Part shown: one piece after another, positions 4,997-15,549 of the stretch
Numbering within the stretch: position 1 is the stretch's first letter
How the letters are laid out: each line of letters opens with the position of its first letter
Assembly (NCBI GenBank): GCA_002778785.1
Contig: PEZS01000010.1
Location: forward strand, 184,671 to 248,670
Source: Bdellovibrionales bacterium CG10_big_fil_rev_8_21_14_0_10_45_34
Lineage (GTDB): Bacteria > Bdellovibrionota > Bdellovibrionia > Bdellovibrionales > 1-14-0-10-45-34
Length of the DNA: 64,000 bases
Direction: 5' to 3'
Translations under genes and position numbers: made by a program
The notes under the pieces: model-generated
What the model was told of the DNA's origin: nothing
Databases searched by the model: none
The model's input: the letters and a program-made list of their open reading frames with translations, nothing else

Positions 4997-6169
4997 TTAG
5001 TGCATTTTTAGTACGACTTTAATACACTCGTCTTTTTGATCACTGAAAATTTCATAGGCGTGGGAGCCTTCATCGATTTCCATTCGGTGTGTAATTACAA
5101 ACGATGGATCAATCTTGTCTTCAAGAATGAGTTTAAGAAGGGGTTTCATGTATTTTTGGGTATGAGTTTGTCCCATTTTGAAAGTGAGGCCTTTTCCGAA
5201 CGCAGCACCAAATGGGAAGTGATCAGAAAAACCGGCATAAACGCCCGGTACAGATACCGTTCCACCTTTTTTGCATGCCATGATCGCCAATCTTAAAGCG
5301 TCGATGCGATCAGTGACAAGTCCAACGGCTGCTTCAACACGATCACGAATTGATGTTATTGACTGCCCGTGGGCCTCCAGCCCGACAGCATCTATGCAGC
5401 TATCTGGGCCGCGCCCTCCCGTTAAAGCTTTGAGTTCATCCACAAGCTCATCGGCATCTTCGTAATTGATAGTTTCAGCGCCGCTATCCGCCGCCATTTT
5501 TAGTCGCCCCTCGAAATGATCGATGGCAATCACGCGCTCGGCGCCAAGCAAAAAGGCGCTTCGAATACACATTTGACCTACCGGACCCGCACCCCAAACA
5601 GCAACAGTATCACCGCGTTTTATGTTGCAGTTTTCAGCTGCCATGTAGCCGGTGGGAAAGATATCACTCAAGAAGAGAACTTTTTCGTCATCAATGCCTT
5701 GTGGAACAATTAAAGAGTTCGTATCTGCAAAGGGTAAGCGAATGTATTCAGCTTGACCGCCGGCGTAGCCTCCCATCATATGCGAAAATCCAAAGGCCGC
5801 GGCTCCCGATTGACCGTAGAGTTCGTCTGGAATAATTGCGTTGGGGTTCGAGTTGTCGCAGGCGGAGTATTCTTCAACCTTGCAGTGATGGCATTTGCCG
5901 CATCCTATATCAAAAGGGATAACAATTCTGTCGCCAGCTTTCAACGTCTTCACAAGTGGGCCTACTTCAACAACTTCGCCCATGGTTTCGTGGCCTAATA
6001 TATCACCCTTTTTCATGGTGGGAACATACCCATTGTACAAATGAAGATCAGAGCCGCAAATAGCAGAAGTCGTTACCTTCACGATAACATCACCGCTAGA
6101 AAGAACTCGCGGATCTGGGACGTTCATCAAATCTACTTTTTGCTTTCCTTGCCAGGTTAAAGCTTTCAT
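4997..6169 (-). CDS. Zinc-dependent alcohol / formaldehyde dehydrogenase family (MDR)
   Basis: Track ORF of 390 aa. Motifs: CGSDLH and GHETMGEV catalytic Zn, CGKCHHC structural Zn, and GAGPVG NAD-binding. Confidence 0.85.
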
Positions 6170-6183
6170 ATAGTTGGTTTCTC

Positions 6184-6780
6184 CTAGTGTTTTAAGACGG
6201 CTTCTGATTCTGAATCACGTCCGCTAGACTGGCCTTCGATGGTGGCGAACTCTCCAGTTTCAAGAAAGCATTTGAGTCTTCGCAGATTTATAAAGGCCAA
6301 CGATTTTGGATCTTCCCCTGCCATGCTCGTCAGTATTTCCGTAAACGTTCCGCCGGGAAGTTTGTAATCAAGTGCAAGACTAATGACTGTTCCTAAATTC
6401 TGTGGGGCGGGAGAAAACCAAATTGATCCTGACGTTTCTACTTCTGAGTCTTCAGTGCTTTGCCAGGCGATCATTTCATTTGGACGCTCGTTTGTGATCG
6501 TGGCCTCCCACTGGACAGTCTTTCCCTTTACTTCAACTGTCCAAAGCGATTTTGCTGACGACAACACGTCAACTGATTTGAGACTCTTCATAAAAAGTGG
6601 GAGGTTTTGAAAATTTCTGAAAAATGTGTAAGCGACCTCTGGGGAAACTCCAACGGTCACCGCCAGGCGACTCTTATCGTCATCGTGAAAGCGTCCGTCT
6701 TGAAACGGTCCTTTCTCTAAAGCTTTAGATTTTTGAGTTTTGTCGACCTGTGGTTTCTCGTGAATTGGAGGAGTAGGCAT
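6184..6780 (-). CDS. SRPBCC (cyclase/dehydrase-like) domain protein
   Basis: Track ORF of 198 aa. The size and the pattern [29 protein letters not shown] are typical of the polyketide-cyclase/SRPBCC fold. Confidence 0.45.
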
Positions 6781-7113
6781 CTAACGAGTCCTTTCAGTAA
6801 TTTTTATCAATACAAACATTTTTTTGAATCGCACATCTAAACCTGATGCAACAGTGAAGCCACTCGTAGTAGATAACTGAGAGTCAAAAGTGAAGCTTAG
6901 GCCGCATGTAATTTAATTGGACGTGTATTTGTGCCACAAATCAGTAGTAAATTTGCCCCAATACTAGGAATTTTCTTGATTCAAAATCTACCAGCTCCTT
7001 TGAGGAGTGCAGCGCGGCTTTGGTATGTTGTCTAAAGCGTGTGATGTCGCAGAGGTCAGCAAACCGTAAGAGCTAATTTCGAAACGAGAGCAGATAATTC
7101 CATCGGTGGCACG

Positions 7114-7383
7114 GTGAAAAGCGAAGTGAACGGTTTGGCGGTTGAAACGATATTGACCTTTGATCGTATCGAAAGAAAGGATACGAAACTTTTTCTCTCT
7201 CGCAACGGGAAGTCTGTAGAGGTGAAAATCACTTCAGATGGCTTCGCCAACAATCACTTTGAAAATCCCAGATACTCGGTGACCTATGAGGGCGGAACAT
7301 TCGAATACAGTCTTAAGGGCCACGCCTGCTGGGCCTATTCGGTGAATCTCGCGCTTCTTATGATTGGCGCCTACACTCACTGA
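7114..7383 (+). CDS. Hypothetical small protein
   Basis: Track ORF of 89 aa with a GTG start. No recognisable motif and no clear RBS. Confidence 0.2.
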   Translation: MKSEVNGLAVETILTFDRIERKDTKLFLSRNGKSVEVKITSDGFANNHFENPRYSVTYEGGTFEYSLKGHACWAYSVNLALLMIGAYTH

Positions 7384-7542
7384 CTTAGTGTGGGCAGGAG
7401 GATAAATTGATTATATTCCCCCCCCCTTTGTCTGCCTCTTGTCACGGGGCCAGACGATGCCAGAACACTTGATAAAGAGATAATTAACAGACGTGTCACT
7501 CGGGAGCAGTTAGTAAAAGTTGGCTATCAGCGCCGACATTCT

Positions 7543-7827
7543 TTACTCGTTATGCCAGCTGACTTCGATCTTATTCCCGTCAGGGTCAAAGATGAAGAAA
7601 CTCGCGAACTGATTTTCTTTATGCATAAGATCACGAGCGAACTGAATATTCAGTGATTTACATTTCTTATACATGGCTAAAGCCTCTTGTTCCGAAGCCA
7701 AGCAAAATCCTAGATGATACCAGCTCGGGAACTTAGGAAGTTCATCAACAGGATCAATTGCGATTAAAAAGCCTGCTTCGTTATCCAGAAAAACTCCAGG
7801 ATCATGGTCGAACTTCTTCTTAACATT
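7543..7827 (-). pseudogene. 5'-truncated glyoxalase/VOC-family gene fragment
   Basis: My own minus-strand translation gives ...FDHDPGVFLDNEAGFLIAIDPVDELPKFPSWYHLGFCLASEQEALAMYKKCKSLNIQFARDLMHKENQFASFFIFDPDGNKIEVSWHNE*. The frame is closed upstream by a TGA at 7830-7828. There is no start codon before an internal Met that is 43 codons from the end, so the N-terminal beta-alpha-beta module is missing. Confidence 0.55.
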
Positions 7828-7857
7828 TCAGTGAGCCTGTCGGGCTCCGCACTATTG

Positions 7858-8280
7858 CTAAGCTGCTACGTTCCCGAGCTTGTGGCTATAAACCATATTG
7901 GGCAGGTGGACCTCAATGGAGTCATATTTGAACTTCAGCTTGGGGAGCTTGGTGTTTCGATTGTCCCCAACATCCTCAATAACTATGAAACCTGCCGCCG
8001 CCAAGCTGTCACAGTCCTTTTTCACGTTTGCAAAGTCCCGACCCACCAATTTAGCCAGTTGATAAACCGAAGTGGGCTTTAAGTTGTGAATTGCCGCTAG
8101 AATCATATATTTCTGCTCACTCATAAGCTTCTGATAAACGGCTACTGAGGCAAAAATTAAAACATCAGGAGACTGAATCAACCTTTTTTTGCTCTTGATA
8201 ACTTCTTTAAGTTCACTTCGGGTACGGTCTTTGAAGTCTTCCCAGGCTTCAAATGTAATTTTCAAAGTTTTACTTTTCAT
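7858..8280 (-). CDS. Winged-helix DNA-binding protein (MarR/HVO_A0114-like), putative antitoxin/regulator partner
   Basis: Track ORF of 140 aa. The stretch ...QKYMILAAIHNLKPTSVYQLAKLVGRDFANVKKDCDSLAAAGFIVIEDVG... is wHTH-like. Its ATG lies inside the end of the restored upstream gene (ATGAAAAGTAA overlap). Confidence 0.6.
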   Translation of the reverse strand: MKSKTLKITFEAWEDFKDRTRSELKEVIKSKKRLIQSPDVLIFASVAVYQKLMSEQKYMILAAIHNLKPTSVYQLAKLVGRDFANVKKDCDSLAAAGFIVIEDVGDNRNTKLPKLKFKYDSIEVHLPNMVYSHKLGNVAA

Positions 8281-8583
8281 TACTCACGATCCTTTCAGTC
8301 TCGCCAATAAAACTCTCAAAGGCTTCATAAAAATCTTTTGCATCCAAGGCGACACGGGTTGTTTTGTCCTTCGGTAGTCCCGCGTGAATATGGAACCCAA
8401 AGGGTGCATGGTTATCAACAAGAAGTCGCGCCAGGTTACTGCCCCCATATCTATCAGCACAAACCGGGCTTTAATACCCTCTGGGTATTTTTCAGTTGGT
8501 TCAACTTCATAAACTTTAAGCTCGACCCGATAGTTCTCGGTAAGTTGAAATGACTGGTCCCAAACAAGCTTCGCATCACCCAT
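8270..8583 (-). pseudogene. Frameshifted small toxin-like gene (xDNHxxxGxHxH type; TumE/DUF6516-like as I recall)
   Basis: Frame 1 reads MGDAKLVWDQSFQLTENYRVELKVYEVEPTEKYPEGIKARFVLID and then becomes junk. Another frame from about 8470 reads ...DRYGGSNLARLLVDNHAPFGFHIHAGLPKDKTTRVALDAKDFYEAFESFIGETERIVSNEK*, ending at 8270 and overlapping the next gene's ATG. The frame switch must lie within 8442-8470, which includes a C5/G5 run. Confidence 0.6.
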
Positions 8584-9170: not shown

Positions 9171-9407
9171 TTAAGCACCCTTTTTATATTTTGCAAGGCC
9201 CTCTGTAATGAACTTGCGCATGAGGGTCTGGTAAGGAACTTCCATCTGCAAAGCCAACGCCTTCAGCCCTGTGATAATTTCTTCGGGCAGGTTAACGCTC
9301 GTGGGGTGTTTGCGCTTGGTCTTAGCCTTGGAATACGCATCCTTGACAGCCTTGGCGTTAAATTTGACGCTTGCATAGCCTTTTTCATTCTTTACATAGT
9401 TCGCCAT
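9171..9407 (-). CDS. BrnA-like / CopG-type ribbon-helix-helix antitoxin
   Basis: Track ORF of 78 aa. The C-terminal part SVNLPEEIITGLKALALQMEVPYQTLMRKFITEGL is typical of BrnA antitoxins. Confidence 0.6.
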   Translation of the reverse strand: MANYVKNEKGYASVKFNAKAVKDAYSKAKTKRKHPTSVNLPEEIITGLKALALQMEVPYQTLMRKFITEGLAKYKKGA

Positions 9408-9516
9408 AAAGACTCCTCTCTTTCTTATTCATTTTCCGAATATGGATGATTCGGATTCCAGATCCACGGATCGTAAAGCAAACAAACACATGCAATCTAC
9501 AAGCCACTGAATGAAC
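9385..9516 (-). pseudogene. BrnT-like toxin remnant (C-terminal ~40 codons only)
   Basis: My own translation gives (stop)VHSVACRLHVFVCFTIRGSGIRIIHIRKMNKKERSLYGELCKE*, overlapping the brnA-like ATG. It matches the BrnT C-terminal pattern ..VVYT.RG..IRIISARKA.kkEr..Y. No start codon and no N-terminal half are present. Confidence 0.45.
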
Positions 9517-9718: not shown

Positions 9719-10144
9719 TCAGTAACAGTTTGGGTTTTTTGTGTGAGGAGGGCAATGAAAGTCCTTAACGGGATTTTTTGCCTCATGGCAATTGAGTCTT
9801 GTTGAATAGCCGCCTTCAAAAACTAACGTTTGATAGGGGTTATTTGCAATTCGAGTAAAGTGATCGATGTAAAAAACATCGGGCAACTGATCATTGGATT
9901 GAGGGGACTTTTCAAATCTTTGGACATGTCCACCAGCATCGTAAGTTGTTTGGGCAAGCATGTATTCTGCCCAATAGTTGGCTCGTCCATTCTTGCCAAA
10001 CCAAAGAACCGCGTCATTGCTTCCCTTGAAGTGAACCGAGTAGCCGTAATAGTTCGCGACTTCTTCGCAGTACTCGAAATCCGCACCGTATGCTGCCTGG
10101 CCACCTATGATTAAGAGCAATGTATAAGTTAGTATCGTTTTCAT
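9719..10144 (-). CDS. Secreted hypothetical protein
   Basis: Track ORF of 141 aa with signal peptide MKTILTYTLLLIIGGQAAYGA. It is divergent from the LysR gene. Confidence 0.45.
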   Translation of the reverse strand: MKTILTYTLLLIIGGQAAYGADFEYCEEVANYYGYSVHFKGSNDAVLWFGKNGRANYWAEYMLAQTTYDAGGHVQRFEKSPQSNDQLPDVFYIDHFTRIANNPYQTLVFEGGYSTRLNCHEAKNPVKDFHCPPHTKNPNCY

Positions 10145-10220: not shown

Positions 10221-11099
10221 ATGTACTTTAAAATAATTAAAACACTTATGGATCTTTCTAGTTTGCAACTTAAGGCATTTTTCGAGACCGCGCGTCTCGG
10301 CAGTTTTTCAAAAGCAGCTGAAGCCTTACACATCACTCAGTCGGCTCTCTCACAGCGAGTGTCGAATTTTGAAAAGGATCTTGAGATCACTCTCATAATA
10401 AGAGACCCGTCCGGACCAGTATTGACTGAGGCTGGGGAGTTACTGTTTAGGTATTGCCAACAGAACGCGGCGCTTGAGAAAGAGGTTCTGGGGCAACTGG
10501 TTTTGGGGAAGGACCAGTTGGCGGGCGTGATTCGCATTGCGGGATTTTCTTCGGTTTTACGATCAGTCATTATACCAAGCCTTGCCCAGTTTCTAAGGTC
10601 TCACACCCATGTTCAGTGCGAGTTTCAGAGTTGTGAGGTCAAGGATTTGGCCGAAGTGCTAAGGACTGCTCGTGCGGAATTAGTCGTTATGGATTATCGC
10701 CTATGTAAGAGCGGAGTTGTGGAAGTGGTGTTGGGGCAAGAAGAGTACGTTGTGATTGAAAGTGCTAAACTGGCAAATTGCAAAGATGTTTATTTGGACC
10801 ATGGCCCTCATGACAACGCCACCGAGTCGTTTTTCAAGTTTCAATCACAAAAGCCTATGGCGTTTAGGAGAACCTTCATGGGGGATGTCTATGGCATTTT
10901 GAATGGAGTTGAAATGGGTTTGGGCAAGGCGGTTATGTCTAAACACCTGCTAAAGGGTAACAATAAAATAAAAATTAAAAAAAGCCACAGAAGGTATTTT
11001 AGGGATGTCACTCTTCATTACTACGAGCAACCCTATTATTCTAAGTTACAGTTGGCGATAGTTCAGGAGCTTAAGTTAAATACCCCTAAGTTTCTTTGA
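10221..11099 (+). CDS. LysR family transcriptional regulator
   Basis: Track ORF of 292 aa with the HTH LQLKAFFETARLGSFSKAAEALHITQSALSQRVSNFEKDL. The true start may be the internal Met at MDLSSLQ. Confidence 0.85.
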   Translation: MYFKIIKTLMDLSSLQLKAFFETARLGSFSKAAEALHITQSALSQRVSNFEKDLEITLIIRDPSGPVLTEAGELLFRYCQQNAALEKEVLGQLVLGKDQLAGVIRIAGFSSVLRSVIIPSLAQFLRSHTHVQCEFQSCEVKDLAEVLRTARAELVVMDYRLCKSGVVEVVLGQEEYVVIESAKLANCKDVYLDHGPHDNATESFFKFQSQKPMAFRRTFMGDVYGILNGVEMGLGKAVMSKHLLKGNNKIKIKKSHRRYFRDVTLHYYEQPYYSKLQLAIVQELKLNTPKFL

Positions 11100-11202
11100 A
11101 TGTGCTAATTGAAGTTCGAATCCGGATTCGACATGGATCCGCTTGGGCAGAAATTTGGTGTCCCCAAGTATGGGGGGTTCAAACTGCGTGTGCTGAAATA
11201 GC

Positions 11203-11625
11203 TTATTGAATCGGCTTGTAACAACACTTTTTGTGAATTTTAACCTCTATGACTTTTTCTAGTTTGTTATCAGGGATAAACACAAGATGCCAGATCTCTT
11301 TGCTTTCACCGGGGTATGGCATAATTTTGTATGCGTAAATTGTGTCACTAAAAAAGTAACTGTCGGGGTCGCCAAGCTCAGTACGCACCAGTTTCATGGG
11401 CTTGCCCACGTATAGCTGATTGACTACAATGTGAACAGCCATCGACTCACGTTTCGTATGGTCGCCATTTTTAAATAAACTTTTATCAAGTTTTTTTATT
11501 CCCCATTTTTTTTGTGCTTCACTTGGGGACATGAAGTCTCCACGATAATATCCTGAGCTAGCAAATGCTATAAAGCAATATAAAGGCAAGAGTGCTGAGA
11601 ATAGGGCGAATCCTTTAAATTTCAT
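11203..11625 (-). CDS. Secreted hypothetical protein (last gene of the 4-gene cassette)
   Basis: Track ORF of 140 aa with signal peptide MKFKGFALFSALLPLYCFIAFASS. There is a 4-nt ATGA-type overlap with the upstream gene. Confidence 0.45.
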   Translation of the reverse strand: MKFKGFALFSALLPLYCFIAFASSGYYRGDFMSPSEAQKKWGIKKLDKSLFKNGDHTKRESMAVHIVVNQLYVGKPMKLVRTELGDPDSYFFSDTIYAYKIMPYPGESKEIWHLVFIPDNKLEKVIEVKIHKKCCYKPIQ

Positions 11626-12281
11626 TTTGCCTCCTTTGGGATGGGCAGTCCAGGACTTATAACGTCAAGATTTTTATTTTGAAGTTCCTCAATTGCTTTG
11701 GCTTCGAGTGTTTTTTCGTTCCACTTGTTGTTTTTAAGAAGAGCTTCGGCCGCGGATTGACCGCGTTCGTTGTTAAAGATATCCATTTGCTTTTCACGGT
11801 TTGATTGGAGCGGGTTGGTTTCGTGAGCATCGAGATATTCTTTTGCTTTTTGTCGGCCCAGTTCCTTGGTTAGCAGGCCGGCCCAAACAAAGTGCCTAAA
11901 GGCATCACTCTCGTCATTAAGGTCTTGGTTAGGGAAGTTGCGGTTGGTAGCATCTTCCGCACGACCTTTTAGCTTATACACGGAGTAGGCTTGTTTAGGA
12001 TTTTTAACGACAAGTTCTTTCTCAGCCTGGGTTAATCCTGGGTAAAAAACAAGTTTTGAAAGTAATGACCCTTTTTCTTTGGGCTTACACAATTCATCGC
12101 ATTGGTTTGGGCACATAAAGGTGCCCATGTCTGTCATTAGCGTCGCACAGTTAAGTTCGCAATTTTTTGAACCCGTTTCAAGCTTGCTTCCTCTAAACCA
12201 ATCGACACAATCCGGGTCAGCTGCGGTAGCGTTGCTTACGATTGAGAGGAGAGCGAAAAAAGTAATCCTATTAAGCCACAT
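11622..12281 (-). CDS. Secreted Cys-rich protein with a DUF6973-like C-terminal domain
   Basis: Track ORF of 219 aa with a signal peptide. The mature N-terminal ~50 aa contain 8 Cys. The motif DAFRHFVWAGLLTKELG...HE...MDIFNNERG resembles the DUF6973 pattern as I recall it. Confidence 0.5.
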   Translation of the reverse strand: MWLNRITFFALLSIVSNATAADPDCVDWFRGSKLETGSKNCELNCATLMTDMGTFMCPNQCDELCKPKEKGSLLSKLVFYPGLTQAEKELVVKNPKQAYSVYKLKGRAEDATNRNFPNQDLNDESDAFRHFVWAGLLTKELGRQKAKEYLDAHETNPLQSNREKQMDIFNNERGQSAAEALLKNNKWNEKTLEAKAIEELQNKNLDVISPGLPIPKEAK

Positions 12282-12591
12282 TAATCTTAACTTCTGCGTT
12301 TGGATAAATTGTGTTTAAAAATTTCATGAGCCGATCTATTGTGAACTCTTCTATATTATAATGGACAACCTTGCTGATCAGGGATTCGTTCTCACCAATC
12401 TTTTCGGCAAGCTCTCTTTGAGTCATACGTTTTTTGTTTTTGTAAATTACGATTTCCTGGCAGATGGCGTACTTAGTGCGATCTATGGCAGAAGCATCTT
12501 TGGGTAAAACCTTAGACGCAGGTCCTTTTGAAAGTCGTTCACGCACTTCTTTTAATTCAGCATCTGAAGGAAATTTTGTTTGTTTGCCCAT
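12271..12591 (-). CDS. XRE-family HTH protein (COG5606/HigA-like antitoxin architecture)
   Basis: Track ORF of 106 aa with the HTH MTQRELAEKIGENESLISKVVHYNIEEFTIDRLMKFL. It starts 6 nt after the upstream small gene and overlaps the downstream gene by 11 nt. Confidence 0.7.
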   Translation of the reverse strand: MGKQTKFPSDAELKEVRERLSKGPASKVLPKDASAIDRTKYAICQEIVIYKNKKRMTQRELAEKIGENESLISKVVHYNIEEFTIDRLMKFLNTIYPNAEVKINVA

Positions 12592-12597
12592 TTTATT

Positions 12598-12897
12598 TTA
12601 CCTCCGATCAACGCGAAATGCGTTGATGACTCCTAAATAATCATCAGAAATACAAATAAGAAGCACGAGGCGAAATGGTGAATTGTTTTTCAGTACAGGT
12701 TCGACGGTGAAATATTGAAATTCGCCATGCACTTCTTCAAGAGGAAAAGTTTGACCATCTAATGCTTGAATAAGATCAAGAATTAATTGGTCATTAACCG
12801 ATTCAGCATGCTTTTCCTTGTAATGCTGATCGATAATGACTCGATTTAGATTTCTACCGTTGATATTTATTCTTAGGTTATATTTTGGTCGAGTCAT
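12598..12897 (-). CDS. Uncharacterised small protein, toxin-like by position (upstream of the XRE gene)
   Basis: The track ORF is 12598..12915. I prefer the ATG at 12897 (MTRPKYNLRININGRNLNRVIIDQHYKEKHAES...GVINAFRVDRR) because the TTG at 12915 lies inside the predicted promoter. Confidence 0.45.
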   Translation of the reverse strand: MTRPKYNLRININGRNLNRVIIDQHYKEKHAESVNDQLILDLIQALDGQTFPLEEVHGEFQYFTVEPVLKNNSPFRLVLLICISDDYLGVINAFRVDRR

Positions 12898-12905
12898 CAA
12901 AACAG

Positions 12906-12936
12906 ACTCTACCAAAGTTTGACAAATTTGTCAAAC
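12906..12936 (-). promoter_or_regulatory. Consensus-like sigma70 promoter embedded in a perfect 20-bp palindrome
   Basis: The minus strand reads gTTTGACAaatttgtcaaactttggTAGAGT, that is TTGACA-N17-TAGAGT. The palindrome GTTTGACAAATTTGTCAAAC (12917-12936) abuts the CCA end of tRNA-Glu. The -10 element ends 8 nt before the ATG at 12897. Confidence 0.5.
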
Positions 12937-13012
12937 TGGCGTTCCCACGGGGATTCGAACCCCGGTATCCACCGTGAAAGGGTGGTGTCCTAGGCCTCTA
13001 GACGATGGGAAC
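12937..13012 (-). tRNA. tRNA-Glu (anticodon UUC), CCA encoded
   Basis: The reverse complement is GTTCCCATCGTCTAGAGGCCTAGGACACCACCCTTTCACGGTGGATACCGGGGTTCGAATCCCCGTGGGAACGCCA. It folds by hand into a cloverleaf with a 7-bp acceptor stem and anticodon loop CTTTCAC. Confidence 0.95.
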
Positions 13013-13140
13013 ATTGCTGAGGCAAAAGAGGTATGAATCTGCCAGAGATTTCTTTAATGAACAACTTTTTCTTCAAGAATTTAGCTCAACTATAAAGGGG
13101 ACACACAAAAAGAGCCGCGGGATTATCAACCCTTGCGAAA

Positions 13141-13216
13141 TGGTGAGCCGCGATGGACTCGAACCATCGACCCCATCCTTAAAAGGGATGTGCTCTACCG
13201 ACTGAGCTAGCGGCCC
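13141..13216 (-). tRNA. tRNA-Lys (anticodon UUU), CCA encoded
   Basis: The reverse complement is GGGCCGCTAGCTCAGTCGGTAGAGCACATCCCTTTTAAGGATGGGGTCGATGGTTCGAGTCCATCGCGGCTCACCA. It folds into a cloverleaf with anticodon loop CTTTTAA. Confidence 0.95.
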
Positions 13217-13270
13217 CTGCAATTGGAAAGACCCTAAGTTCTAAAAGCAGGCCCCCATTGTGTCAACGCT

Positions 13271-14572
13271 CTATTCTGAAAATAACGGCTTGATCCAAAG
13301 ATTTTGCTCTCTGCCAGGTCCGACAGAAATCAAATCTATAGGAGTACCAAGCTCCACTCCAAGAAAGCTTATATATTCCTGAGCCTCTCGGGGTAGGTCT
13401 CGAACAGAGCGAGCGGTATCAATGGGTTCCTTCCATCCTTTAAACGATTTCAATACAGGCTGAGCCATCTTAAGAACCTTTGAACACATCGGATATTCTG
13501 CCGTCGGCTCTAGATCATCAATTCGGTAGTGAGTGCAAACTTTGATCTCATCCATTGCGGTCAGTACATCAAGCTTTGTAAGCACAAGATTGGTGATCCC
13601 ATTAATTCGTATGGCATGTTTTAGTGCCACCAGATCCAGCCAACCACATCGACGAGATCGTCCGGTCGTGGCGCCAAACTCGCCACCAACACTTCTGAGA
13701 TGCTCACCCAATTCATTGTCGAGTTCCGTCGGGAAAGGCCCCTCTCCGACTCGCGTTGTATAAGCCTTCGTAACGCCGACCACACGTGTGATTACGGCGG
13801 GGCCGACGCCTGCAGAAGTGCAGGCAGACGCAGCTAAAGTTGAGCTGCTTGTGACGAACGGAAATGTGCCATGATAAACATCGAGCAAACTGCCTTGAGC
13901 ACCTTCAAAAAGAATATGCTTTTTCTTTCGGTGGGCTTGGTGCAGTTGAAAAGATAAGTTCTGACAGCGAAACTCCTCGAGCGCAGCTGCAAACGGTTTT
14001 GCCCACTTGATGAGTTCGTCAACGCTAAAAGTCTTTGATTTGTAGACAGTCTCAAAAAGGGCATTTTTTTCTTTTAAAGCGATCTCTAGCTTGCTCCGTA
14101 ACACAGACTCTTCAAAAAGATCTCGAAAAAGAATGCATCGCCTTGAAGCGCGATCTTCGTATGCAGGGCCAATTCCTCTGCCGGTGGTTCCAATTTTTGT
14201 TCCAGCGGAGTCTGATTCTCTGGCTTGGTCGAGAGCTTTATGAAAAGGAAGTATCACGGTGCAGTCATCTGAAATTAAGAACTGACCAGGTCGTTGTACC
14301 AGCCCAGCATCTTTGATTTTCGAAAGTTCCTCAGTGAGCTTCTCGATGTCGATGACTACACCTGGAGCAAGTGCACATGTAACGTGGGGGTGAAAGATTC
14401 CAGAGGGAACCAAATGCAAAACGGTTTTTACACCATTTATCACAAGCGTGTGACCTGCATTTGATCCGCCTTGAAACCGTATAACAAAATCGACGTCTTT
14501 TCCGAAAAGGTCGACAATTTTGCCTTTTCCCTCATCTCCCCATTGTGCTCCAACTACTGCAAATGCTGGCAA
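13271..14572 (-). CDS. purA: Adenylosuccinate synthetase
   Basis: The track ORF is 13271..14596, with the GAQWGDEGKGKIVD P-loop and conservation along its length. I prefer the TTG at 14572, which is preceded by AGGAG and removes the overlap with the upstream gene. Confidence 0.93.
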   Translation of the reverse strand: MPAFAVVGAQWGDEGKGKIVDLFGKDVDFVIRFQGGSNAGHTLVINGVKTVLHLVPSGIFHPHVTCALAPGVVIDIEKLTEELSKIKDAGLVQRPGQFLISDDCTVILPFHKALDQARESDSAGTKIGTTGRGIGPAYEDRASRRCILFRDLFEESVLRSKLEIALKEKNALFETVYKSKTFSVDELIKWAKPFAAALEEFRCQNLSFQLHQAHRKKKHILFEGAQGSLLDVYHGTFPFVTSSSTLAASACTSAGVGPAVITRVVGVTKAYTTRVGEGPFPTELDNELGEHLRSVGGEFGATTGRSRRCGWLDLVALKHAIRINGITNLVLTKLDVLTAMDEIKVCTHYRIDDLEPTAEYPMCSKVLKMAQPVLKSFKGWKEPIDTARSVRDLPREAQEYISFLGVELGTPIDLISVGPGREQNLWIKPLFSE

Positions 14573-14580
14573 AATATCTC

Positions 14581-15549
14581 CTAGCTCTGGTACCAAGGTG
14601 CCAGAGGCGGAAGTTTATCAGAGAGCTCTTTGTCGTCAAAAAAATTGACCAGCTTTTGTGCGGCGAGCATTGAGGACTTGTTAAATGCTTCAACCGTCAA
14701 AGAGGCCATGTGTGGGGTCAAAGACGCACTGGGTAGGGCAAGTAAAGGGCTCGCCGGTCTTAGTGGTTCGTTTTCAAAGACATCAAGAGCAATGGTTCGA
14801 AGATTTTTATTTTTGACTGCTTCCGCCAGGTCGAATTCATTGATTACGCCTCCTCGCGAACAATTTACGATGGCTGCATCATCAGAGATCCACTCTAACG
14901 TACGTCGGTTGACCATGTGTTTCGTTTCTTTAGTCAGTGGAACATGAAAACTCACGATATCGCCAACTCTCATGGCTTCTTCGAAGCCAACTAATTCAAC
15001 GCTTTGCTGAAGGGCTAACTCGGGCTCAATGTAAGGGTCATATGCATACAACTTCATTCCAAAAGCTCGTGCGTATCTTGCCACTCGAGAGCCAACTCGC
15101 CCGAAGCCCACGATGCTAAGAGCTTTGCCTTCAAGTTCAAAACCCAAAAGTTCCGAGCGGCTCCAGTCTGGAAGTTTTCCCATCTTGAGGGCCAATGGGA
15201 TATTTCTTGCAACACTGAGTATGTGGCTAAAAGTGAGTTCAGCGGTACTGGTGATATTGGCATCTGGAGTGTAGTAACAGGCAATGTTTCGATTCTCACA
15301 AAATGCAAAATCGAAATGATCAAATCCACTAGTGGCCGTGACCACCATTTGCAGACGTTCAAAACCCTTAAGGCTGGCTTCATTGATCTCTGTATCAGAT
15401 CTCACGACAAGACCTTGCAAAAGCTCCGGCGACTTGAGGTCTTTAAGCTTTTTGACCCATTGAACTTGAAAGTTCGAATGGCTTTGAAGCCAGGCGAGTG
15501 CGTGGGCTTCAAATCTTCCGACAATTCCGACGCAGATTTGTTTCGTCAC
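14581..15549 (-). CDS. serA: D-isomer-specific 2-hydroxyacid dehydrogenase (short-form phosphoglycerate dehydrogenase-like)
   Basis: Track ORF of 322 aa. NAD motif IVGFGRVGSRVA, and the catalytic-region motifs NCSRGGVI and LDVFENEP. A GTGA overlap couples it to the upstream aminotransferase gene. Confidence 0.7.
   Translation of the reverse strand: MTKQICVGIVGRFEAHALAWLQSHSNFQVQWVKKLKDLKSPELLQGLVVRSDTEINEASLKGFERLQMVVTATSGFDHFDFAFCENRNIACYYTPDANITSTAELTFSHILSVARNIPLALKMGKLPDWSRSELLGFELEGKALSIVGFGRVGSRVARYARAFGMKLYAYDPYIEPELALQQSVELVGFEEAMRVGDIVSFHVPLTKETKHMVNRRTLEWISDDAAIVNCSRGGVINEFDLAEAVKNKNLRTIALDVFENEPLRPASPLLALPSASLTPHMASLTVEAFNKSSMLAAQKLVNFFDDKELSDKLPPLAPWYQS

Follow-up and report, generated by a model that had tools for sequence, protein, structure and literature searches.

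The stretch of DNA analysed here, 64,000 nt of contig PEZS01000010.1 from Bdellovibrionales bacterium CG10_big_fil_rev_8_21_14_0_10_45_34 and hereafter called the window (WIN), carries a cassette of four minus-strand genes, g1 to g4, in which a putative toxin–antitoxin (TA) pair is directly followed by the genes of two exported proteins; the loci to which it was compared are labelled L005, L072 and so forth. The genes are separated by a 6-nt gap (g1/g2) or overlap by 11 nt (g2/g3) and 4 nt (g3/g4), in agreement with the packing described in the original prediction, and the first protein ends in GVINAFRVDRR as had been described, but it is 99 and not 100 aa long. The cassette and its promoter region comprise the following features.

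12598–12897, minus strand: g1, 99 aa, C-terminal end GVINAFRVDRR, putative toxin
12271–12591, minus strand: g2, 106 aa, HTH_37 antitoxin/repressor candidate
11622–12281, minus strand: g3, 219 aa, exported DUF6973 protein, BteO homologue
11203–11625, minus strand: g4, 140 aa, exported partner of g3, candidate immunity protein
12906–12934, minus strand: sigma-70-type promoter, with −35 TTGACA at 12934–12929 and −10 TAGAGT at 12911–12906
12917–12936: perfect 20-bp palindrome GTTTGACAAATTTGTCAAAC, directly after the 3′ end of tRNA-Glu
12919–12934: palindrome core TTGACA-N4-TGTCAA, overlapping the −35 element, predicted operator for the helix-turn-helix (HTH) dimer of g2
12937–13012, minus strand: tRNA-Glu(UUC), found with ARAGORN, its 3′ end abutting the palindrome

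A GGAGG ribosome-binding site can be read from the sequence before the ATG of g2 and of g4, and no clear Shine-Dalgarno was seen in the sequence before g1 or g3. The G+C content is 0.36–0.385 in g1, g2 and g4, 0.44 in g3 and 0.449 in the whole window. Identical copies of the cassette locus are present on several metagenome contigs.

The g1–g2 pair and its promoter

In line with the COG5606/HigA-like protein that had been proposed, g2 matches Pfam HTH_37 (COG5606, Ata/HigA-type) at 6.7e-08, with 32.7 bits against a cut-off of 27; the HTH occupies residues 38–103 and is preceded by a 37-residue N-terminal extension, while the closest solved relative is PDB 2o38 (7e-05). HTH_37/COG5606 is the antitoxin of toxin-first Gp49/RelE-type TA systems such as Tad-Ata and HigBA (PMC2701414, PMC7157771). 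A g2 homologue lies directly 3′ of g1 in every locus with a full g1 and downstream sequence, that is in about 44 species genomes and in further metagenome loci, and the pair is kept in about 50 Bdellovibrionota loci. The TA features found at the sequence level are an adjacent, co-oriented and conserved gene pair, an HTH of an antitoxin family and an operator-like palindrome in the promoter, and g1–g2 appears to behave as a toxin-first type II TA-like pair, as the toxin-like/XRE pair of the original prediction implied. A role of the pair as a defence system was set aside, PADLOC having returned only a weak HTH similarity of g2 to the PDC-M64/M69 candidates.

No Pfam, NCBIfam or PADLOC family was matched above noise by g1, either with single sequences or with every member of its alignment, and its profile gave nothing useful against the PDB sequences. 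The g1 family itself counts 111 close homologues and, in a deep hidden Markov model (HMM) search, 367 cluster representatives at 50% identity, nearly all of about 100 aa. A genome scan recovered 44 loci, nearly all in metagenome-assembled genomes of Bdellovibrionota, with a few records labelled Nitrospinota or Alphaproteobacteria. Residues D23, H25, Y26, H30, D36, R76, G89, N92, A93, F94 and R95 are invariant in the family alignment (A1). The AlphaFold (AF2) model of g1 (pLDDT 90.7) displays a beta-beta-alpha-alpha-beta4 topology, and its Foldseek matches in the PDB are mostly HigB2, RelE and HigB chains, at weak scores (prob ≤0.93, E ≥0.05, TM 0.4–0.5); judged by this model, the predicted fold is weakly RelE/HigB2-like. 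The ten distant members that were tested were uninformative, except for one with weak DUF4258, LPD13 and MuF_C matches, and an hhalign comparison of the g1 family with a DUF4258 protein was not significant, though the IIDQHY/IIRKHC motifs align.

The perfect 20-bp palindrome is indeed flush with tRNA-Glu, as had been described. The TTGACA-17-TAGAGT promoter that it partly contains, likewise part of the original prediction, is the sole 10/12 match in a consensus scan of 10900–13300, with a spacer of 17 nt, a TG before the −10 element and the ATG of g1 8 nt past the −10 end. Within the window the core TTGACA-N4-TGTCAA occurs once, where shuffles give 0.35 occurrences at ≤1 mismatch, and taken alone this uniqueness is weak evidence of function. 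Across the family, the core is found with ≤1 mismatch 35–48 nt upstream of the first codon of g1 in 33 of 43 distinct loci from unrelated genomic contexts, and L072, in which the palindrome is displaced by an intron, is the 34th. Since a fixed distance to g1 is kept in 34 of 43 independent loci, the palindrome is considered functional, and the built-in operator that had been postulated is matched by a family-wide, operator-like palindrome overlapping the −35 element. In L035 (g1 at 6001–6294) a different palindrome, TTGCTA-N4-TAGCAA, occupies the same place, about 30–45 nt upstream of g1, and may represent an operator that co-varies with the HTH of g2.

The layout of −35, 17-nt spacer, −10 and start also recurs across loci, and because the start codon lies 4–8 nt past the −10 element in most of them, the g1 mRNA is predicted to have little or no leader, as had been proposed for the window. 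The mechanical start of the g1 open reading frame (ORF), a TTG at 12915, falls within the −10 region and is an unlikely start. A separate observation concerns L072, where a group II intron (6053–8002) sits within the start codon of g1 (AT/G), between the palindrome and promoter (6014–6029) and the g1 body; it was recognised by Rfam RF02005 at 6109–6366, RF00029 at 7921–8002, a reverse transcriptase ORF at 6518–7903 and a 5′ end reading GTGCG. If the L072 mRNA had no leader at all, just about 2 nt would be left for the 5′ exon, which bears on the transcription start site. Downstream of the promoter, scans of the minus strand detected no promoter-like site of ≥9/12 within g2 and no terminator-like site between the cassette genes.

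Among described systems, g1–g2 is closest in layout to the type II TA systems of the Tad-Ata/HigB-HigA type (Gp49/COG4679 with COG5606/HTH_37, including V. cholerae HigB2-HigA2; PMC2701414, PMC7157771), which likewise place the toxin gene first and have an HTH_37 antitoxin with an N-terminal extension. Further common traits are a toxin of about 100 aa with a RelE/HigB2-like fold, which in g1 is a predicted one, a palindromic operator in the promoter, and residence in variable regions rich in TA-like and mobile genes. Unlike in these systems, g1 is matched by no Gp49, RelE or HigB profile and forms its own family, nearly all of it in Bdellovibrionota; the operator coincides with the −35 element of a promoter whose mRNA is apparently leaderless; and in the lineage studied here the operon runs on into two exported proteins.

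The exported g3–g4 pair

The g3 protein consists of a signal peptide (residues ~1–21), a helical module with six cysteines (25–65; cysteines at 25, 41, 45, 57, 61 and 65) and a DUF6973 domain (89–202). The description of g3 as a secreted, DUF6973-like protein thus holds, but its module has six rather than the eight cysteines that had been counted. Pfam DUF6973 (PF22322) is matched at 5.6e-20, with 71.6 bits against a cut-off of 27, and by 34/34 aligned homologues. As read from the sequence, the N-termini of both g3 and g4 are signal-peptide-like, in keeping with the second secreted 140-aa protein of the original prediction. Invariant positions in the g3 alignment (A3) are D123, E124, D126, AFRH (127–130), W133, H153, E154, M166, D167, N170, N171 and G174.

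A profile built from the 34 g3 homologues matches PDB 9uu0 (BteO) at 1.5e-05, with ESxAFRHxxW, AHExNP and DxxNNxxG aligning motif by motif. BteO (9UU0) is a type VI secretion system (T6SS) effector of Bacteroides fragilis that is toxic only in the periplasm, binds the C-terminal domains of OmpA and is neutralised by the periplasmic immunity protein BtiO, while mutations at R143, H144, H167, E168, D187 or D191 abolish its toxicity (PMC12541434). The Arg-His, His-Glu and Asp of the common motifs are essential for both toxicity and OmpA binding (PMC12541434). In g3, R129/H130, H153/E154 and D167 align with R143/H144, H167/E168 and D191 of BteO, and the counterpart of D187 is E163, mostly conserved. 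The BteO-BtiO system (PMC12541434; PDB 9UU0/9UU1) hence has with g3–g4 in common the AFRH, AHE and D..NN..G motifs of the first protein and a partner gene immediately downstream that encodes a signal peptide, its site of action being periplasmic. BteO differs in its N-terminal transmembrane helix and its delivery by the GA3 T6SS, in place of which g3 carries the 6-Cys module and a Sec signal that can be cleaved off; the hosts are B. fragilis on the one hand and a Bdellovibrio-like bacterium on the other.

The AF2 model of g3 (pLDDT 87.9) is all-alpha, and its top Foldseek match in the PDB is Wnt3 (6ahy_F; prob 0.92, E 0.79, TMq 0.33), while Pfam wnt is weakly matched by 1 of the 34 g3 members (E 0.024). 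A relation of g3 to the SAA-Wnt (SAW) clade of the Lipocone superfamily is a lead only. Secreted members of that clade (Min-Wnt/prok-SAA) form two-gene toxin–immunity systems (PMC12419801), and they resemble g3–g4 in having a soluble all-alpha domain that follows a signal peptide and a two-gene layout with a periplasmic or membrane partner. The Lipocone sNxxGR motif, which marks the active-site position in helix H4, can be set against N170-N171-x-x-G174 of g3, which is invariant but followed by Q instead of Arg, whereas BteO has NNQIGR; Lipocones are predicted enzymes, whereas BteO has been reported as non-enzymatic. DUF6973 is not named in the Lipocone paper (PMC12419801) or its supplements, and a literature search for DUF6973 found no paper. 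A phage origin of g3 was left without support, a scan of viral contigs having given no relatives.

The g4 protein carries a signal peptide ending in AFA and a highly conserved core, LGDPDSYFFSDTIYAYKI...WHLVFIPD...KKCCY, and its 195 homologues have a mean column identity of 69%. No Pfam, NCBIfam or PADLOC family was matched above noise by any alignment member, and the g4 profile hit no PDB chain at E ≤10, including 9UU1. Lipocone toxins can have BamE-like immunity partners, membrane-anchored or periplasmic proteins of two helices plus three strands, and g4 gave no match to Pfam SmpA_OmlA. Residues 132–136 consist of an invariant KKCC and a nearly invariant Tyr in 27 aligned sequences; two neighbouring cysteines of this kind are uncommon and might serve in metal binding, in a disulfide bond to g3 or in lipidation. 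A second g4 remnant may exist in L019, where 59 nt (11571–11629), located 5 kb from the main locus, are 88% identical to window positions 11189–11247, in which g4 ends and the sequence beyond it begins.

Wherever g3 is present, g4 follows directly, with a 4-nt overlap in almost all loci. The reverse does not hold: g4 is intact beside an interrupted g3 in L053/54, L057, L058 and L064, beside g3 remnants in L052, L066, L068 and L074, and without any g3 in L060 and L062. Overall, in a sample gathered partly through g4, at least 10 loci have an intact g4 where g3 is disrupted, truncated or missing, and there is no intact g3 without g4. Since g3 decays while g4 persists, the pair shows the pattern typical of a toxin and an antidote, and g3–g4 resembles an exported effector accompanied by its partner, which upholds the effector/immunity-like secreted pair that had been suggested.

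Linkage and separability of the two modules

The complete absence of linkage between the secreted genes and the toxin-like/XRE pair in other genomes had been named as the outcome that would speak against a single system, and the survey of neighbourhoods found the same four-gene order in L072, L069 and L068, each in a different genomic context and with 57–92% protein identity. In L072, where g1 is 89% identical to that of the window, the context holds integrases and IS66, and the nucleotide homology with the window is confined to the promoter and to the stretch that begins with g1 and ends 38 nt beyond g4, at 11165. In L069 (g1 74% identical) 4-nt stop/start overlaps are present at every junction, and in L068 (g1 79% identical) g3 has decayed while g4 is intact. 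In the g1 tree these three loci and the window fall into one clade together with L005 and L076. Because the first ~9 codons of g3 still follow g2 in L005, g3–g4 has been deleted there; the fusion is thus secondarily lost in L005 and probably in L076.

The two modules can be separated. In 42 of the 44 genome loci that carry g1–g2, no g3–g4 lies within 6 kb, and g3/g4 homologues occur at that distance only in L019, there upstream of the pair. Concomitantly, none of the g3–g4 loci found independently of g1 carries g1–g2. Examples of g3–g4 on its own are L075, with a divergent XRE gene upstream, L080, in a housekeeping context near smpB, rsmA and tsaD, L085, in which the order is purA-tRNA-Lys-tRNA-Glu-PrsW-g3-g4-HigBA, and L049, L065 and L057. 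The idea of a TA switch that drives exported cargo therefore finds partial support, as an arrangement that recurs but not as an obligatory single system.

Recurrence of the fusion is the strongest point in favour of such a switch. The g3–g4 genes are joined behind three different TA-like pairs, namely g1/HTH_37, DUF4258/MqsA-like and winged HTH (wHTH)/nucleotidyltransferase-like, and among the loci with an intact g3 found independently of g1 about 2 of 6, which are small numbers, are fused behind a TA-like pair. In L050 (412–1137) a 73-aa DUF4258 protein and a 163-aa MqsA-like zinc-finger/HTH protein are encoded directly upstream of g3–g4, the end of the latter gene overlapping the start of g3. 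In L019 (2454–5173), 0.8 kb upstream of the g1–g2 pair, four genes follow each other with overlapping codons; they encode a wHTH protein (109 aa), a nucleotidyltransferase-like protein (183 aa), a protein of 452 aa that ends in a DUF6973 domain, and a g4-like protein (164 aa). The P0113 contig has a g4 86% identical to that of the window with an upstream arrangement of 109- and 182-aa genes as in L019; this 109-aa + 182/183-aa pair is present twice on the contig and was likened to the L019 pair by gene size only.

The cargo behind g1–g2 is variable in turn, since L012 and L076 hold other genes at that place, and other genes follow g2 in L076, L077 and L078. In L012 (6613–7347) an ORF of 244 aa, GNAT-like in its C-terminal half, begins 3 nt after the stop codon of g2 on the same strand, and in L076 (3016–3660) a protein with Polbeta-NTase and zf_Tbcl matches closely follows g1–g2, again on the same strand. 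An integron cassette was considered and set aside, as attC sites would not fit between genes whose stop and start codons overlap.

The surroundings of the cassette comprise the following features.

13141–13216: tRNA-Lys(UUU), upstream of tRNA-Glu
13271–14596: purA, upstream of tRNA-Lys
11100–11202, minus strand: 3′ region between g4 and the LysR-type gene, with hairpins that include the palindrome TCGAATCCGGATTCGA at 11116–11131
10221–11099, plus strand: LysR-type gene, convergent with g4

The purA-tRNA-Lys-tRNA-Glu surroundings also hold g1–g2 in L012 and L076 and g3–g4 in L085, and the region downstream of tRNA-Lys/tRNA-Glu is a variable spot common to both modules. In the window and in L012 g1–g2 directly adjoins tRNA-Glu, while 0.3–2.4 kb of other DNA lies between the two in L016, L023 and L076; the intact tRNA-Lys/tRNA-Glu of the relatives are marked by L016:3492–3567, L023:379–454, L076:200–275 and L085:2304–2379. 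Pieces resembling the 3′ end of tRNA-Glu (..ACGCCA) are found directly 5′ of the g1 palindrome in L005, L013, L016, L019, L030 and L072. As tRNA 3′ fragments adjoin the palindrome and g3–g4 of L085 lies downstream of the same tRNA pair, tRNA-Glu may well be a hot spot of repeated insertion. The window has no second copy of the tRNA-Glu 3′ end, and hence no island edge could be defined.

Interpretation of the cassette

The reading that we favour, and consider probable, is that the cassette is a composite operon of two separable two-gene conflict modules, with the TA promoter likely driving all four genes. In such an operon g1 would act as an mRNA-cleaving toxin by way of its invariant His, Arg, Tyr and Asp residues, while a dimer of the C-terminal HTH of g2 would bind the −35-containing palindrome TTGACA-N4-TGTCAA and repress the operon. 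Since stop and start codons overlap and neither an internal promoter nor a terminator is detectable, g3–g4 would be transcribed from the TA promoter, with translation of g3 coupled to that of g2. The g3 protein would be a Sec-exported toxin that keeps the residues BteO needs for toxicity and OmpA binding, and g4, also exported through Sec, would neutralise it in the periplasm of the producer. Derepression of the TA operator would then lead to synthesis of the exported toxin together with its partner, and the TA pair might in addition stabilise the locus. The four genes do not make up an obligatory system, yet they are not together by mere chance either: the fusion persists in one clade and recurs with other TA-like pairs. 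A precedent for the arrangement is given by the TA pairs within Tn3-family transposition modules, which have been proposed to belong integrally to the larger unit or to regulate or stabilise it (PMC7157771); there, type II TA pairs, including toxin-first Gp49/HTH_37 ones, lie directly upstream of co-oriented genes as g1–g2 does here, but the downstream genes encode a resolvase and a transposase, whereas the cassette has an exported toxin-like protein with its partner and no transposition genes.

Several points weigh against the composite operon. Toxicity, immunity, DNA binding and co-transcription are properties that we infer from the sequences, and the link of g1 to RelE, drawn from its model, is weak, with no Pfam Gp49 or RelE match. 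A weak promoter inside g2 may exist despite the consensus scan. Delivery is through a T6SS for BteO, whereas g3 carries a Sec signal and the 10 kb on either side contain no T6SS genes; likewise BtiO is an OmpA-C-like mimic, whereas g4 displayed no similarity to BtiO or any solved structure in the profile search. At its level of column identity g4 is unusually conserved for an immunity protein, and faulty assembly may account for some of the frameshifts that metagenome contigs show in g3. Finally, the g4 tree intersperses copies linked and not linked to g1–g2, and g3/g4 of the window are nearer to those of L050 (66/71%) and L075 (62/78%), both without g1–g2, than to those of L069 (57/66%); on account of this interspersion and proximity the fusion history could be one old event with losses, repeated fusions, or recombination.

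Three other explanations were weighed against the composite operon. If the four genes formed a single integrated system, the TA-like pair would be a dedicated sensor or switch required for controlled release of the effector, and selection would act on the whole unit. Retention of the four-gene order in three other loci of different context, the overlaps at every junction in L069 and the independent placement of g3–g4 behind two other TA-like pairs, which suggests selection for TA-type control, all speak for it. We nevertheless regard it as unlikely: most g1–g2 loci and most g3–g4 loci are devoid of the other module, g3–g4 has been deleted (L005), has decayed (L068) or is absent (L076) within the fusion clade itself, and other cargo stands behind g1–g2 in L012 and L076. 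At the other extreme, a deletion may simply have joined two residents of the tRNA-Glu hot spot, in which case the expression signals of g3–g4 would lie inside g2 and the TA pair would be a selfish addiction element. Such a passive juxtaposition would fit the presence of g1–g2 (L012, L016, L023, L076) and of g3–g4 (L085) downstream of tRNA-Lys/tRNA-Glu, the tRNA 3′ fragments beside the palindrome that indicate repeated insertions, a neighbourhood rich in other TA-like genes, and the G+C content of g1, g2 and g4, which is below that of the window. It is an improbable account all the same, given that g2 contains no minus-strand promoter-like site of the strength scanned for and no terminator separates it from g3, that the 11-nt overlap together with the missing clear Shine-Dalgarno of g3 favours coupling, and that three different TA-like pairs fused to g3 with overlapping codons are hard to credit to chance.

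The third explanation concerns the function of the exported proteins: g3–g4 would be an envelope-maintenance pair within an ordinary stress-regulated envelope operon, for instance with g3 as a periplasmic factor for the OmpA-peptidoglycan link or the lipid carriers of the producing cell and with g4 as its cofactor. The high conservation of g4, the location of some g3–g4 pairs among housekeeping genes, as in L080, and the use by both proteins of the general Sec route and not of a dedicated weapon would agree with it, but g3 has repeatedly become a pseudogene next to a persisting g4, the residues that BteO requires for toxicity do not vary in g3, and the distribution is patchy, often in TA-rich variable regions; we therefore consider it very unlikely.

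Beyond the composite operon itself, one may ask if unrelated TA-type pairs have repeatedly been recruited in Bdellovibrio-like bacteria as leaderless, self-repressed drivers of an envelope toxin, Sec-exported, BteO-like and possibly Wnt/Lipocone-related, and of the matching antidote, a generalisation that we put forward tentatively and still hold to be doubtful. Should it be true, release of an extracellular or periplasmic weapon would be gated by derepression of an intracellular TA module, for instance upon stress, phage attack or predation. If instead the coupling is passive, the locus would simply be a clearly resolved case of modules being shuffled at a hot spot next to a tRNA gene. BteO, an experimentally characterised weapon of gut bacteria, is tied to the Pfam family DUF6973, Sec-exported and T6SS-independent versions of which occur with a different partner protein in many Bdellovibrionota loci. 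With g1, a previously unannotated toxin-like family is defined, of about 370 clusters at 50% identity, whose operator is clear and whose promoter appears to be leaderless. The fusion of g3–g4 behind three kinds of TA-like pairs also suggests that TA modules can be portable regulatory or stabilising heads for conflict genes.

Regarding the sequence around the cassette, the 3′ region at 11100–11202 has an RNA fold z of −2.6 and is likely the transcript end of the cassette; a simple scan found no canonical terminator in it. Further TA-like genes lie in the neighbourhood on the minus strand of the window. At 7858–8583 a 99-aa protein without a family is followed by a 140-aa HVO_A0114/MarR-like winged-helix protein, and the two resemble a further TA-like module of this variable region. 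A 78-aa protein with a weak CopG_antitoxin match is encoded at 9171–9507, where a short upstream ORF (9385–9507) may be a toxin-gene remnant. The gene at 9719–10144, also on the minus strand, encodes a 141-aa protein with a signal peptide, several cysteines and no Pfam family, and it adjoins the divergent LysR-type gene.

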